From Alysiella filiformis (GTDB lineage: Bacteria > Pseudomonadota > Gammaproteobacteria > Burkholderiales > Neisseriaceae): 24,000 nt of DNA. Positions 9,354 through 18,844 of the stretch are shown here, piece by piece; the first letter of the stretch is position 1, and every line of letters begins with the position of its first letter. The position numbers and the translations under genes are program-made. The notes beneath the pieces were generated by a model, which was not told the origin of the DNA, ran no database searches, and saw only the letters and a program-made list of their open reading frames with translations. The DNA lies in NCBI RefSeq assembly GCF_014054525.1, contig NZ_CP059564.1, positions 48,357 through 72,356 of the forward strand, in the 5' to 3' direction.

Positions 9354-9368
9354 TTCAGGCAGCCTGAA
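9354..9368. repeat. DUS palindrome TTCAGGCAGCCTGAA, left edge of the AT-rich insert
   Basis: Exact 15-mer, same orientation as the copy at 11477-11491. Confidence 0.85.
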
Positions 9369-9533
9369 CGAATTTTTATGCCTACTTAATTATCAATACC
9401 AAAACACAAAATTTCCAAATGCAGTACAATATAATTCAATTAAAAACAACTAGATAAAAAACACCAATCACATTACATTAGCCATGCTTTCAAAGCAAAC
9501 ATCTCAACTTAAATTTTAAAAAGGAAAGTCATC

Positions 9534-10709
9534 ATGGCTAAACAATACCGTAAACCCACAAATGAAGTTACCATTATTTATGGTGGTCGCAGCCCTGCTG
9601 GACGTGATACGCTTAATCCAAAAGATGTATTACCAAACGGTATGACAGCAAAACAACATTGTGAAAAATTGATTGCTGAACGCGGCGGCAAAGGGCATTT
9701 CATTGAAAAAAATTCTGAATTGGAAGATGTATGTATGTTGCACAGTTGCAGCTATTTTGGCGGCTGCTATGAAGCTGCCGAATACAGCTACCATTACGCA
9801 CTTTGCACCGAAATTGAATTTACCGCCACACTCAATGGCAAAGCCACTACCGCCAAAGAACTGGCAGCCTTAAAAGGTGGCGAGCGTGTGATTATCACAG
9901 CCAATCAAGATGTCGCTTGGTCTGCCAACGACAATAAAAAATTGGAAAAAGTGGCAATTAACCCAACTACCTATTCATTTACCATGCCCAAAGTAGGCTC
10001 ATTTACCATTAAAGCAACAGGAAAATGCGACCCGAAAGCGAGTAAAAGTGTTACGGTTGCAGTAAAAACAACCATTACATCGCCAGCACCCAAACCACAA
10101 TTTCCCAAAGACAAATTCATTGATGAACTTTATAAAGCAATGGATGAATTTAGTATTAAAGAGAAAAATGACCGTGCTGCCTTTTTAGCAAATGTTGAAC
10201 ATGAAACTATGGGTTTTAAAAGTTTATCAGAAGGTCAAGGCTTAAAATACACATTCAAAAACTGGAAAACAATTAACAAAAATACAAAAAATTGGGCAGC
10301 ACAAAAAGGGATGAATGCAGAAAGTGAATTTAACAAATTATCAGAACAAGATAAAATCAATATTATGTATCGCAATATGATTGGTAATAACAAACCAAAT
10401 GATGGTTGGGAATTTCGTGGGCGCGGCGCAATTCAATTAACAGGTAGGGGAAATTATCAAGGATTTGCCAACTACGCCAAACGTCCTGATATCATGACTA
10501 ATCCCAATTTAATTGCGACAGATATTATATTAGCTGCTCGTGCATCTGCATGGTTTTGGAAAAAAGGCTCACAAGCCAGCACATTAGCTTTAAAAGGTGA
10601 TTTCAGAAAATCACGTTTAACAGTCAATCATGGACGAGGTATGGAAGAAACTTTAAACTTTATCAATCGATATCTTTCAGGTAAAGGTTCTATTCCACTT
10701 TATCGTTAA
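9534..10709 (+). CDS. Leaderless multidomain protein with C-terminal GH19/COG3179 lysozyme (chitinase-like) domain; candidate secreted peptidoglycan-hydrolase toxin
   Basis: 391 aa; RBS aaaggaaag lies 6 nt before the ATG. C-terminal motifs are AAFLANVEHETMGFKSLSEG, FRGRGAIQLTGRGNYQGF and ARASAWFWKK. No N-terminal hydrophobic leader. Cys-rich N-terminal ~90 aa, central beta-rich ~90 aa, PAPKPQFP linker. AT-rich codon usage unlike the flanks. Confidence 0.75.
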   Translation: MAKQYRKPTNEVTIIYGGRSPAGRDTLNPKDVLPNGMTAKQHCEKLIAERGGKGHFIEKNSELEDVCMLHSCSYFGGCYEAAEYSYHYALCTEIEFTATLNGKATTAKELAALKGGERVIITANQDVAWSANDNKKLEKVAINPTTYSFTMPKVGSFTIKATGKCDPKASKSVTVAVKTTITSPAPKPQFPKDKFIDELYKAMDEFSIKEKNDRAAFLANVEHETMGFKSLSEGQGLKYTFKNWKTINKNTKNWAAQKGMNAESEFNKLSEQDKINIMYRNMIGNNKPNDGWEFRGRGAIQLTGRGNYQGFANYAKRPDIMTNPNLIATDIILAARASAWFWKKGSQASTLALKGDFRKSRLTVNHGRGMEETLNFINRYLSGKGSIPLYR

Positions 10710-10723
10710 ATAATACCAGTCAA

Positions 10724-10762
10724 AATCCAAGCTGTATTGTTTTAAATCATACGGCTTGGATT
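10724..10762 (+). other. Intercistronic stem-loop between the hydrolase gene and its partner
   Basis: aatccaagc (10724-10732) pairs with gcttggatt (10754-10762): 9-bp perfect stem, 21-nt loop, no U tail. It ends 21 nt before the next ATG. Confidence 0.45.
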
Positions 10763-10783
10763 AAAAGATTTAAGGAAACATTT

Positions 10784-11188
10784 ATGAAAAAATATTTATC
10801 ACTTTTATTACTTGGCTTAACACCGTTTACCTTTGCCAAAGAAACCTTGGAATTTTTGTGCAACACCGACCACAATGGAAAAGTCAGCATCCACTCCACA
10901 CCCCAAAAGTCCCATTATATTTACCGATTTTATAAAAATGGTAAATTAAAACTAACGATTAAGCACAATTATCAGCAAATTTTTCAAAACAGTTTAAATG
11001 AGAACCATATATCAATTATGCGTTTTCAAAATAACAATTATCAGTATTCCATTTATAACGCAGATTTTCGTTATGCAGGTGCTGATAATCCCGTAGCTGG
11101 CATTGAAATTACAACCCTAAATGATAAAGAATTCGTATCAAGATTAGCATGTATTAAAATTCATAAAAATTTTTCAAATATTCAATAA
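10784..11188 (+). CDS. Small exported (periplasmic) protein; candidate cognate immunity protein
   Basis: 134 aa; RBS taaggaaa. Sec-type signal peptide MKKYLSLLLLGLTPFTFA|KE. Mature part is N/Y/H-rich with two Cys (FLCNTD, LACIKI). Lies 74 nt downstream of the hydrolase on the same strand and is the lowest-GC stretch hand-counted. Confidence 0.65.
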   Translation: MKKYLSLLLLGLTPFTFAKETLEFLCNTDHNGKVSIHSTPQKSHYIYRFYKNGKLKLTIKHNYQQIFQNSLNENHISIMRFQNNNYQYSIYNADFRYAGADNPVAGIEITTLNDKEFVSRLACIKIHKNFSNIQ

Positions 11189-11476
11189 TCACATCACTAT
11201 TGGTTTAAAGAATACATTATCCTTGGTTACACAATATCAAAACAATAAAGGACAAATTCCATTATTAAAATAATCTAAAATACAAAAAAACAGTCCGAAT
11301 ATTCTCTTGATGAATTTCATTGATAATACTCGGATACAATCATGATTTCAACATTTATCTATAAAGCAAGTCCAATCATGCAAAAACACCTATCTCTTAT
11401 TATTTTATGTTTTTTCTATGTATCACATACAGTGGTCATGCAAAAAATACAGATATGATAAAAATTCAAAATGATT

Positions 11477-11491
11477 TTCAGGCAGCCTGAA
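11477..11491. repeat. DUS palindrome TTCAGGCAGCCTGAA, right edge of the AT-rich insert
   Basis: Exact 15-mer; first of two direct copies 30 bp apart, downstream of the SBP gene stop. Confidence 0.85.
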
Positions 11492-11506
11492 AAGCCAAAA
11501 TGCGCT

Positions 11507-11521
11507 TTCAGGCAGCCTGAA
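11507..11521. repeat. DUS palindrome TTCAGGCAGCCTGAA
   Basis: Exact 15-mer; second direct copy, 21 nt beyond the SBP gene stop. Confidence 0.85.
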
Positions 11522-17321: not shown

Positions 17322-18806
17322 TCATTCCTCATTCAAATCAAGCTGTTTCAATGCGTCAAATTTCGCTTTCATGGTTGGGTTTTTGCGTGTGAGTTTTTTC
17401 ACGGTCAAATCATCGGCTTTGCGGTTTGCCAGCTCCAAATTGCGCTCAGACGACAACAATTCCGCTTTGGTTTTTTCCAACTCTTTGATACTTTTATCAA
17501 TATGTTCAATGGCAGCCTGAAACTTGCGGCTTGCCAATTCATAATTGCGCGAAAAATTGGTTTTAAACTCGTCCAATTCATTTTCAAAATTGGTGATGTC
17601 AATGTTTTGCGCTTTCATTTTTTGCATTTCCTGCTTGTATTTCAAAGCCTTAAATGAAGTTGTACGCAAAATCGTAATCAAAGGAATGAAAAACTGCGGA
17701 CGAATCACATACATTTTCTCGTATTCGTGCGACACGTCCACAATACCGCTATTATACAAGTCGTTATCGTTTTCCAGCAGCGACACCAGCACCGCATATT
17801 CACAATTTTTTTCGCGGCGGTCTTTGTCCAACTCTTTGAAAAAATGTTCATTTTTCTTTTTGGTGGCGGTGGCATCGTTTTCATTTTTCATTTCAAACAT
17901 AATGGAAACGATTTCCGTGCCATTTTCGTCCAATTCACGGTAAATGTAATCGCCTTTGCTGCCTGAACGCGCGTCATTATCCTTATGAAACAAAGCATTG
18001 GGAAAAGCCGTTGCCCGAATTTGGTTGAACACAATTTCACAATGCTGCTCCAAACTTTCGCCCAGCATTTTGGTGGATTGTTTGGCTTTAAAATCTCGAT
18101 AAAATTCAATGGCTTCATCTTTTTGTTTGAGCTGCATTTCATATTGTTGCTGCAAATTTTGTTTTGCCAACTCGTTTTGGGTTTTCTGCAATTCAAGTTG
18201 TGATTTTAAGTGATTGATTTCTTGTTCTTTTGCTGATTTATTTTCCAGCAACAGGTTTTGCGTTTCCATTTTGTGCAAATTCAATTTATTTTCAGAAAAT
18301 TGCTTTATTTCACGCAATTCATTCTCTTTTTTCATCAATTCTTGTTCAAATTGTGCCGTCAAATTTTGTTGGAGCGCGGCAATTTGGCTGTCAAATTTTT
18401 CTTGCCAAGCGCGAAGTTCGGCATTTTTGGCGGCAATTTCTTGTTTTAATGCGGTTTCGGCTTGGTTCATTGCCAAGCGGCTTTCACTTTCGTGATTGGC
18501 AATTTGCGCTTGCAAATGAATGATTTGCTGCTCTTTTTCCGATAAGGCTGCCTGAAAATCGCGTTGGCTTTCGGCTTTCAACTGCAAAATGTGCTGTTCT
18601 TTTTCGTTTAAGGCTGCCTGAAAATGCTGTTGGTTTTGGGCGTGTTGTAATTGCAAATCGCTGTGGTATTTTTGTTCCAACTGTTTGATTTGTTTTTGCA
18701 ATTCCAATTCAAATTCGCGTGTGCGAACCTGATTTTGAATGTCGGCATAGTGGTTTTCGTCTATGGTAAAGGCGGTGTGGCAATGGGGGCATTTGATGTC
18801 GTGCAT
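17322..18806 (-). CDS. DUF2130-like protein: N-terminal Zn-ribbon, long coiled coil, C-terminal PD-(D/E)xK-like nuclease core
   Basis: Begins MHDIKCPHCHTAFTIDENHY, a C-x2-C ribbon typical of DUF2130 as I recall it. About 230 aa of Q/E/K-rich heptad-like sequence follow. The C-terminus has KGDYIY...SIMFEMKNE (D...ExK). The start could also be the GTG at 18839. Confidence 0.7.
   Translation of the reverse strand: MHDIKCPHCHTAFTIDENHYADIQNQVRTREFELELQKQIKQLEQKYHSDLQLQHAQNQQHFQAALNEKEQHILQLKAESQRDFQAALSEKEQQIIHLQAQIANHESESRLAMNQAETALKQEIAAKNAELRAWQEKFDSQIAALQQNLTAQFEQELMKKENELREIKQFSENKLNLHKMETQNLLLENKSAKEQEINHLKSQLELQKTQNELAKQNLQQQYEMQLKQKDEAIEFYRDFKAKQSTKMLGESLEQHCEIVFNQIRATAFPNALFHKDNDARSGSKGDYIYRELDENGTEIVSIMFEMKNENDATATKKKNEHFFKELDKDRREKNCEYAVLVSLLENDNDLYNSGIVDVSHEYEKMYVIRPQFFIPLITILRTTSFKALKYKQEMQKMKAQNIDITNFENELDEFKTNFSRNYELASRKFQAAIEHIDKSIKELEKTKAELLSSERNLELANRKADDLTVKKLTRKNPTMKAKFDALKQLDLNEE
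18545..18556 (+). repeat. DUS 12-mer AGGCTGCCTGAA
   Basis: Exact; encodes FQAA on the coding (minus) strand of the DUF2130-like gene. Confidence 0.85.
18611..18622 (+). repeat. DUS 12-mer AGGCTGCCTGAA
   Basis: Exact; 66 nt from the previous copy and in the same frame (FQAA). Confidence 0.85.
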
Positions 18807-18844
18807 GGTGTGTTTCTCGCAAAAATTCGTATTATTCACAAAAA

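Follow-up and report, generated by a model that had tools for sequence, protein, structure and literature searches.

A leaderless GH19 protein and its exported partner in Alysiella filiformis: a predicted toxin–immunity cassette of a polymorphic family in Neisseriaceae and Moraxella bovis

Introduction

What use could a bacterium make of a cell-wall lysozyme of phage-endolysin type which has no leader for export, and which is followed by a gene for a small exported protein? This question is raised by two adjacent genes of Alysiella filiformis, located at positions 9534..10709 and 10784..11188 (both + strand) of a stretch of 24,000 nucleotides taken from contig NZ_CP059564.1 (positions 48,357 to 72,356), which is referred to here as the window. 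We consider it probable (about 0.8, irrespective of the delivery route) that the two genes form a toxin–immunity cassette of a new polymorphic family, with payloads predicted from their sequences to degrade the periplasmic peptidoglycan of competitors. The pair is read as a weapon against neighbouring bacteria because relatives of the toxin keep its N-terminal module while swapping both the enzyme and the antidote.

A leaderless protein with an endolysin-type muramidase domain

The toxin open reading frame (ORF, 9534..10709) encodes 391 amino acids (43 kDa), and its product is 100% identical to an A. filiformis database protein labelled only "GH19 protein", in agreement with the family Neisseriaceae presumed in an earlier reading of the sequence. 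The start at 9534 is preceded 6–7 nt upstream by an AGGAAA ribosome-binding site and by an in-frame stop at 9510–9512, and the N-terminus MAKxYR is kept in all homologues. Since the start is thus secure, the toxin is truly leaderless, without a Sec, Tat or lipoprotein leader. A reading made earlier from the letters of the window (the sequence-only reading) had already described the protein as leaderless, and every motif that it quoted is present in the ORF.

The C-terminal part (residues 194–391 and the stop codon, 10113..10709, + strand) was assigned to the endolysin-type GH19 muramidases from Pfam, from matches to sequences of solved structures, from PHROG and from active-site mapping. In Pfam, PF00182 is matched with 38.2 bits (cut-off 25.5), the top match in the PDB is the SPN1S endolysin (4ok7, E 2.7e-22, residues 197–367), three other solved GH19 lysins match with E-values of 1e-13 to 1e-16, and the PHROG endolysin family phrog_181 matches the domain with an E-value of 1e-34. 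Residues H223, E224, E233, Q301 and T303 align with H50, E51, E60, Q127 and T129 of PaGH19Lys (PDB 9EOI), which belong to the active site of this experimentally proven muramidase (PMC12329726). The two glutamates, encoded by codons 10203–10205 (E224) and 10230–10232 (E233) on the + strand, are the catalytic pair that had been proposed from sequence, and the HET...EG and QLTG motifs are kept in the aligned GH19-type relatives. The C-terminal domain is, by these alignments, an intact endolysin-type GH19 muramidase, its activity being predicted. Related GH19 domains were also found on WXG100-type N-termini (P0033, P0034 and P0037); these proteins look like Gram-positive polymorphic toxins in the style of the type VII secretion system, with the same muramidase payload.

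One N-terminal module, exchanged payloads

The N-domain of the toxin (residues 1–92, 9534..9809, + strand) is a Cys-containing alpha/beta domain which defines the family. When 1.84 billion representatives were searched exhaustively with its profile, no more than about 30 clusters proved to contain it, and in each of them it forms the N-terminus of proteins of 200–450 amino acids. With the domain that follows it, the N-domain makes up a module of 178 residues (the N-module), and across the family this module carries at least eight unrelated classes of C-terminal domain. In addition to the GH19 class (supported by Pfam, PDB and PHROG), these are a SleB-like Hydrolase_2 class (PF07486, precomputed), a Tae4 amidase class (PF14113, 44 bits against a cut-off of 27), an SLT-like "GAGQFT" type (PHROG transglycosylase, E 1e-12), a "GYYGFYQFG" type (PHROG baseplate-hub tail lysozyme, E 8e-6), an "EHEGG...GKFQI" type (an unnamed PHROG, E 5e-18, and a tail lysozyme, E 0.002) and two further classes with no match, represented by the C-terminal domains of P0031 and P0045. 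Comparison of three non-GH19 C-terminal classes with PDB sequences gave nothing meaningful.

The hosts of the family are Alysiella, Wielerella, Kingella-like and Neisseria metagenome-assembled genomes (MAGs), a Neisseriaceae isolate and Moraxella bovis, and complete genomes are among them (CP092360.1, CP092357.1, CP183313.1, the A. filiformis chromosome and M. bovis CCUG 2133). In the M. bovis strain, a gammaproteobacterial pathogen, the locus L013 (8001–11022) comprises an intact SleB-type member, with an N-module identity of 62–64%, and orphan immunity genes. This implies that the family has passed from one bacterial class to another within the bovine niche that they have in common. Among the 72,556 plasmids of PLSDB nothing matched the N-module, and a plasmid-borne bacteriocin was rejected on this ground. 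The N-module has no match either in the 50,697 phage genomes of INPHARED or in IMG/VR.

An exported partner that follows the payload

The gene downstream of the toxin (10784..11188, + strand) is the candidate for the cognate immunity gene. Its product of 134 amino acids begins with a typical Sec signal peptide as judged by eye (residues 1–18, 10784–10837; MKKYLSLLLLGLTPFTFA before the cleavage point and KE after it), which agrees with the exported partner announced by the sequence-only reading. No Pfam, NCBIfam or PDB match was obtained for this product, and the partner is annotated as "hypothetical protein". It belongs to a family that we call TLEF after its motif (TLEFxC...HST...YIYRFYKNG), which comprises only 18 clusters in a search of 5.8 billion proteins, all of them from sources of the toxin family. 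A TLEF gene lies 3' of every GH19-type member for which downstream sequence was examined (the window, L003/L005, L008, L018, L023, L024 and L025), with 50–100% identity, and L024 has two TLEF paralogues.

The association extends to the other payloads. A small ORF with a Sec-type signal, again judged by eye, lies 3' of the toxin in seven of the seven payload classes examined, and the family to which it belongs tracks the class of the payload: TLEF accompanies GH19, LprI/DUF1311 accompanies the GYYGFYQFG type (where its gene overlaps the toxin gene by 4 nt), and other classes have other partners. The presence of exported partners for every payload class indicates that all payloads would act in the periplasm.

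Orphan or additional immunity genes are common, with orphan TLEF copies in L010 and L013. In the M. bovis locus, the TLEF-type orphan genes are found near the SleB-type toxin and one of them is split (10544–10798 / 10795–11022). In Neisseriaceae bacterium B1, a second toxin copy (L012, 8001–9199, equivalent to L010, 9974–11065) is frameshifted after about residue 20, and both an LprI-type and a TLEF-type immunity gene remain 3' of it, so that immunity has outlasted the toxin here. The window itself contains a short ORF at 11340–11460 with a signal-peptide-like start (MQKHLSLIILCFFYVSH...) and, in tblastn, a weak similarity (E 0.026) to the N-terminal end of one TLEF-type immunity protein; it may be the remnant of a further immunity gene.

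The payloads and their partners also bear on whether the enzyme is antibacterial at all. GH19 is historically a chitinase family, the Pfam name of PF00182 is "Chitinase class I" and a UniRef source labels the toxin "Predicted chitinase", so that a chitinase or an anti-eukaryotic enzyme could be considered. The best matches are, however, to the endolysin subfamily, of which the proven muramidase PaGH19Lys is a member, the sister proteins bear peptidoglycan-specific domains (Tae4, SleB-like), and a periplasmic immunity protein is sensible only if the target is a bacterial cell wall. Of all the explanations considered here, this one is the least probable, and it is very unlikely.

Neighbourhoods without phage or secretion genes

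Toxin–partner pairs were found in about 10 unrelated housekeeping neighbourhoods. The pair of the window adjoins nqrA, and others adjoin cobW, a HIT gene, a gyrB-like gene, a ComEC-like gene or rlmL. Within 8–10 kb of the pairs, where contigs reach that far, none of these neighbourhoods contains a holin, spanin or phage structural gene, nor a vgrG, hcp, PAAR, type VI secretion system (T6SS) adaptor or ABC exporter gene. The plainest account of the protein, an endolysin whose N-terminal part is an ordinary cell-wall-binding domain and whose homologues sit in holin/spanin cassettes, had been raised in the sequence-only reading as the result that would speak against a weapon. It was rejected on account of these housekeeping contexts and of the absence of the N-module from the phage collections. 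The GH19 phage endolysins SPN1S (4OK7) and PaGH19Lys (9EOI) share with the toxin a homologous catalytic domain (the solved GH19 lysins match with E 1e-22 to 1e-13) and an identical active-site constellation, but they are single-domain, holin-dependent proteins encoded in lysis cassettes or prophages, whereas the toxin is extended by 190 residues at its N-terminus, is accompanied by an immunity gene and lies outside any phage context.

The same observations weigh on the idea of a domesticated phage-type lysin or autolysin that acts on the producer itself, for programmed lysis, for DNA donation in a naturally competent family or for wall remodelling in the filaments of Alysiella, with the partner as a periplasmic safety inhibitor. 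The GH19 domain is closest to phage endolysins and the toxin is leaderless as they are; Alysiella forms multicellular filaments through incomplete septation (PMC10715097), and autolysis islands exist in Neisseria (PMC11798529). Against this, the surroundings are free of holin, spanin and phage genes and the phage genomes lack the N-module, an enzyme with no leader would come into contact with the wall only if the membrane were damaged, and the family is patchy and located on low-GC islands. The swapping of payloads with matched immunity, the arrays of orphan immunity genes and the spread to Moraxella are signatures of conflict rather than of housekeeping. A role in self-lysis or remodelling is therefore unlikely, and the reading as a toxin–immunity cassette is retained.

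Some neighbouring genes can be mentioned in their own right. One member, with a C-terminal domain of no assigned type and a signal-peptide partner, is inserted at an unusual site in a core operon, between rpoB and rpoC (L020, 2025–3556). In a Kingella MAG, a MafB-family toxin gene (L015, 806–2721; PF06255, E 9e-25) with a small downstream ORF lies about 6 kb upstream of a family member. On the – strand of the window, the ORF at 17322–18839 encodes 505 amino acids with a DUF2130 domain (E 1e-87) and is unrelated to the toxin cassette.

Structure of the N-terminal module

The N-terminal part of the toxin was modelled with AlphaFold from an alignment of 22 sequences, with a predicted local distance difference test (pLDDT) score of 88.5. 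The three-part layout read from the sequence is recovered in the model as the N-domain (residues 1–92), an Ig-like beta-sandwich domain (residues 93–178, 9810..10067, + strand) and a Pro/Lys-rich linker that contains PAPKPQFP (residues 179–193, 10068..10112, + strand). The model is of low confidence from about residue 179, with pLDDT values of 50–56 from residue 181 on. The N-domain is built of three strands, two helices and four strands, in this order, and reaches a pLDDT of 87.9 when modelled alone. A Foldseek search of the PDB and BFVD with it returned no significant structural neighbour (best E-values 0.26–0.64, template-modelling score of at most 0.4), and it has no sequence match in Pfam, NCBIfam, PHROG or the PDB; a profile of the whole N-module gave weak Ig-like matches at most when searched against PDB sequences, Pfam, NCBIfam and PHROGs. 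The follow-up by structure prediction and Foldseek that had been proposed with the sequence-only reading thus gives no recognised fold for the first part and an Ig-like one for the middle part.

Foldseek places the Ig-like domain next to intimin, LigB and the Ig domain at the C-terminus of gpV, the tail-tube protein of lambda, and its profile matches the tandem Ig/PKD-like repeats of giant proteins. In P0025, P0026 and P0048 it is tandemly duplicated between the N-domain and the payload. A tail-tube-like N-domain had been considered, as the two-domain model matched T5 pb6 and lambda gpV in Foldseek; this was rejected since the gpV match falls on the C-terminal Ig domain of gpV and the N-domain alone matches nothing.

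Conserved cysteines are C43, C67, C91 and C165 alone, and a ferredoxin-like or zinc-binding Cys cluster was rejected for this reason; the CxxxxC...C run occurs in the Alysiella/Wielerella branch only, C67 being its one conserved cysteine. C43 and C67 are invariant across the family alignment, whereas C91 and C165 are nearly so and are lost together in P0031. This pattern suggests two disulfides in the N-module, which would imply a protein meant for an oxidising compartment.

The fold of the N-terminus bears on two proposals for how the toxin might travel. According to the sequence-only reading, residues 10–16 (NEVTIIY) loosely resemble a TonB box. Residues 1–27 are modelled as strands of a folded domain (residues 4–27 confidently, the block having pLDDT values of 79–88), and NEVTIIY overlaps the predicted strand at residues 12–20. 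The TonB box was rejected, the segment being part of a strand that is folded with confidence in the model and not of a disordered tail.

The second proposal is a double-glycine leader, in which residues 1–18 (..IYGG) would be cleaved by a peptidase-containing ABC exporter (type I secretion system, T1SS, or peptidase-containing ABC transporter, PCAT) and the rest secreted as a large bacteriocin. Most members do have GG at residues 17–18, with hydrophobic residues at –4 and –7, and Alysiella has RtxB/D-type T1SS components without an RTX toxin (PMC10352306). Residues 4–27 are nevertheless modelled with confidence as strands of the folded N-domain, GG is replaced in P0005 and P0010 (FADYD/FAPYD) and its position shifts in distant members, no ABC transporter gene is adjacent at any locus, and the substrates of PCATs are normally small peptides. 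Such a leader is thus very unlikely, although marginally less so than a chitinase.

Cassette borders and their exchange

The toxin and partner genes lie on an island of low GC content (0.42, dropping to 0.27, in surroundings of about 0.48), between what reads as the nqr operon and a gene for an amino-acid-binding protein. The operon was recognised from NqrF-like and ApbE matches in Pfam, and NqrA/B were read from the translation. The left edge of the island is marked by a terminator-like inverted repeat (9354..9368, + strand) with a 12-mer that resembles a DNA-uptake sequence (DUS), and is followed by a conserved upstream region (9360..9533, + strand; promoter and the AGGAAA ribosome-binding site) which travels with the toxin gene. 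At the DNA level, two contigs of metagenomic origin, L027 and L028, share 97% identity with the window from 9305 to about 10069, and the Wielerella bovis loci, which have a different neighbourhood, share 91% from 9360. Among cassettes with different payloads, this similarity stops abruptly at about 10069 (codon ~180), at the codons that end the Ig-like domain (VAVKT), which places the linker at the recombination junction.

On the other side, a conserved and terminator-like element of 41 nt with a DUS-like inverted repeat (11454..11494, + strand) forms the right-hand cassette junction. It is 100% identical in W. bovis (L007, 12257–12297; L011, 8700–8740) and about 93% identical in L027 and L028, and in all of these it is placed 3' of the immunity genes. 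A second DUS-like 12-mer copy (11510..11521, + strand) marks the right edge of the low-GC island. The 12-mer, AGGCAGCCTGAA, occurs 15 times in the window where 0.01 copies are expected (the sites include 607, 4656, 9357, 11480, 11510 and 15675), often as a terminator-like inverted repeat. Three of its copies bracket the toxin island and none is found inside, the 41-nt element and the left island edge each containing one. We take this 12-mer to correspond to the Kingella-type dialect of DNA-uptake sequences.

Judged from these alignments, the cassette is composed of a constant 5' part (promoter and N-module), a variable part (payload and immunity gene) and a constant 3' element, which is the layout that homologous recombination after transformation would exchange. 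One W. bovis locus (L011, 6444–11619, CP092357.1) has two cassettes with different payloads in tandem and a HIT-family gene before each of them, which suggests that the whole insertion site was duplicated.

Proposed mechanism and route of delivery

In the mechanism that we propose, the exported partner would reside in the periplasm, both in the producer and in its kin, and block the muramidase there. The toxin would leave the producer, and the N-module would guide it to the outer membrane of related bacteria and through this membrane, after which the muramidase would cut the glycan strands of the cell wall and lyse cells that lack the matching immunity gene. The cassettes would diversify by homologous recombination, probably after natural transformation, with the conserved 5' part and the conserved 3' element with its DNA-uptake sequences providing the homology for the exchange.

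Several points weigh against this reading of the two genes. The statements on toxicity, immunity and killing are predictions, and all signal peptides were judged by eye. Three of the payload classes are called cell-wall hydrolases from PHROG similarity only, and two classes have no assigned function. No export mechanism was recognised for the leaderless toxin of 43 kDa, and its N-terminus, which is folded in the model, has neither the disordered translocation region nor the TonB/Tol box typical of colicin-like bacteriocins. Finally, Tae4 or lysozyme payloads with periplasmic immunity proteins are also a hallmark of T6SS effectors, whose orphan pairs can be remote from the secretion genes.

This last point leads to the alternative that the toxin is cargo of a T6SS encoded elsewhere, in which case the N-module would serve for loading by binding VgrG, PAAR or an adaptor, neighbours in contact with the producer would receive the muramidase in their periplasm, and the partner would be a Tsi-like immunity protein. 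The resemblance to the T6SS peptidoglycan effectors is considerable: Tae4, a named T6SS amidase family, is found on the N-module, the classic pairs Tse1/Tsi1, Tse3(Tge1)/Tsi3 and Tae4/Tai4 likewise combine a leaderless wall hydrolase (muramidase or amidase) with an exported, periplasmic immunity protein, and orphan pairs are known far from T6SS loci, on islands. On the other hand, T6SS genes and markers are unlinked to the family at all loci, with no vgrG, hcp, PAAR or adaptor gene in the roughly 10 distinct neighbourhoods, and the two-domain N-module with its Ig-like domain is no described loading domain and has no Pfam or NCBIfam match, T6SS marker domains included. With its 43 kDa, its two N-terminal domains that are folded in the model and its likely disulfides, the toxin would be atypical cargo, and payloads that are all periplasmic, with no nuclease or NADase among them, would be unusual for a T6SS loading domain. 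The intact copy in M. bovis would also need a compatible T6SS there. T6SSs are present in some Neisseria commensals (PMC10210955, PMC8263058), but the known Neisseria T6SS effectors carry PAAR/Rhs domains. A literature search on T6SSs returned no data for Alysiella, Wielerella, Kingella or M. bovis, and a tblastn search of plasmids with Hcp gave no Neisseria among the matches listed or the top organism names. Delivery by a T6SS is considered less likely than not, but it is a serious rival.

A self-contained and diffusible route of bacteriocin type, comparable to that of pesticin or pectocin M, is preferred as a tentative choice that falls somewhat short of even odds, the probability left over from these two routes going to some other one. 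It is favoured because the two-gene module never sits with secretion genes, because an intact copy is present in the gammaproteobacterium M. bovis, and because the payloads all act in the periplasm and are carried by a module with an Ig domain of surface-binding type and probable disulfides. The folded N-terminus is no obstacle in principle, as pectocin M, whose N-terminal domain is folded and has no disordered tail with a TonB box, is able to carry its payload in. The sequence-only reading had proposed a leaderless lytic bacteriocin or effector with a periplasmic partner, imported in the manner of pesticin. The first half of this proposal is strengthened by the payload swapping, the cognate signal-peptide genes, the orphans and the lack of phage context, while the pesticin-like import is at odds with the folded N-terminus.

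Comparison with known systems

A close parallel to the toxin in terms of layout is pesticin with its immunity protein Pim from Yersinia pestis. It is leaderless and of similar size (357 amino acids versus 391), consists of an N-terminal targeting part followed by a C-terminal muramidase that acts in the periplasm, and comes with an immunity protein in the periplasm but without a lysis gene; a leaderless toxin with an adjacent immunity gene, as expected of colicin-like or pesticin-type bacteriocins, is what is found here. The two differ in the catalytic fold (T4-lysozyme-like in pesticin, GH19 here) and in the N-terminal parts, which resemble each other neither in sequence nor in structure: that of pesticin comprises a TonB box in a disordered N-terminus and an FyuA-binding domain, while the toxin has, in the model, a folded N-domain followed by an Ig-like domain, and its family swaps payloads. 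The colicin M class and the pectocins M1 and M2 (a ferredoxin with a lipid II-degrading domain) resemble the toxin in their small folded N-domain, the absence of a long disordered segment, the fusion through a linker, a payload that acts only in the periplasm and a periplasmic immunity protein. Their payload is, however, a lipid II phosphatase and not a glycosidase or amidase, and the N-domain here is not a ferredoxin.

The family also has the properties of polymorphic toxins, namely a constant N-terminal region with replaceable payloads and downstream immunity genes that co-vary with them and occur as orphans. MafB and other Neisseria polymorphic toxins share with it the constant N-terminus, the variable toxin ends, the downstream immunity genes, the orphan modules and the recombination in naturally transformable hosts. 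MafB proteins differ in having a signal peptide, DUF1020 and mostly nuclease-type toxins that act in the cytoplasm, whereas the proteins described here are leaderless, with an unrelated N-module and periplasmic payloads. The engineered lysocins and pesticin–lysozyme hybrids, which combine the uptake module of a bacteriocin with a phage-type lysin to cross the outer membrane, are similar in design; they are artificial constructs, while the family is a natural one in which the uptake function is putative.

Novelty and significance

A literature search found no description of the family, nor of a GH19 bacteriocin or effector in Neisseriaceae, as the sequence-only reading had supposed for a protein of this architecture, and the sister toxins are annotated as "hypothetical protein" in the databases. 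A polymorphic toxin with its immunity protein is a known kind of system; what is new is the trafficking module, the set of payloads and the immunity family. Since the N-module has no match among sequence families or structures and no secretion genes are linked to it, it suggests that folded wall enzymes move between Gram-negative cells in a manner not recognised so far. In its strongest form, which is possible but held with still more reserve than the bacteriocin-like route itself, the proposal is that the N-terminal 178 residues would be a new, self-sufficient module for delivery across the outer membrane, which would ferry at least six classes of cell-wall hydrolases into the periplasm of relatives without a dedicated secretion machine. 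The family would then consist of natural lytic bacteriocins of lysocin type, found in host-associated Neisseriaceae and Moraxella and exchanged as cassettes by transformation.

The outer membrane is the main obstacle to the use of endolysins against Gram-negative pathogens, and a module capable of self-contained uptake would be a natural blueprint for carrying lysins across it, already directed at pathogens of veterinary and paediatric importance, among them Moraxella bovis, Wielerella bovis and Kingella. The delivery domains of polymorphic toxins define how bacteria fight, and the family would add a protein weapon to those described so far in oral and ocular Neisseriaceae, which are Maf toxins, contact-dependent inhibition (CDI) systems and T6SSs encoded on plasmids or chromosomes. 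It also provides a case of cassette exchange bounded by what appear to be DNA-uptake sequences.

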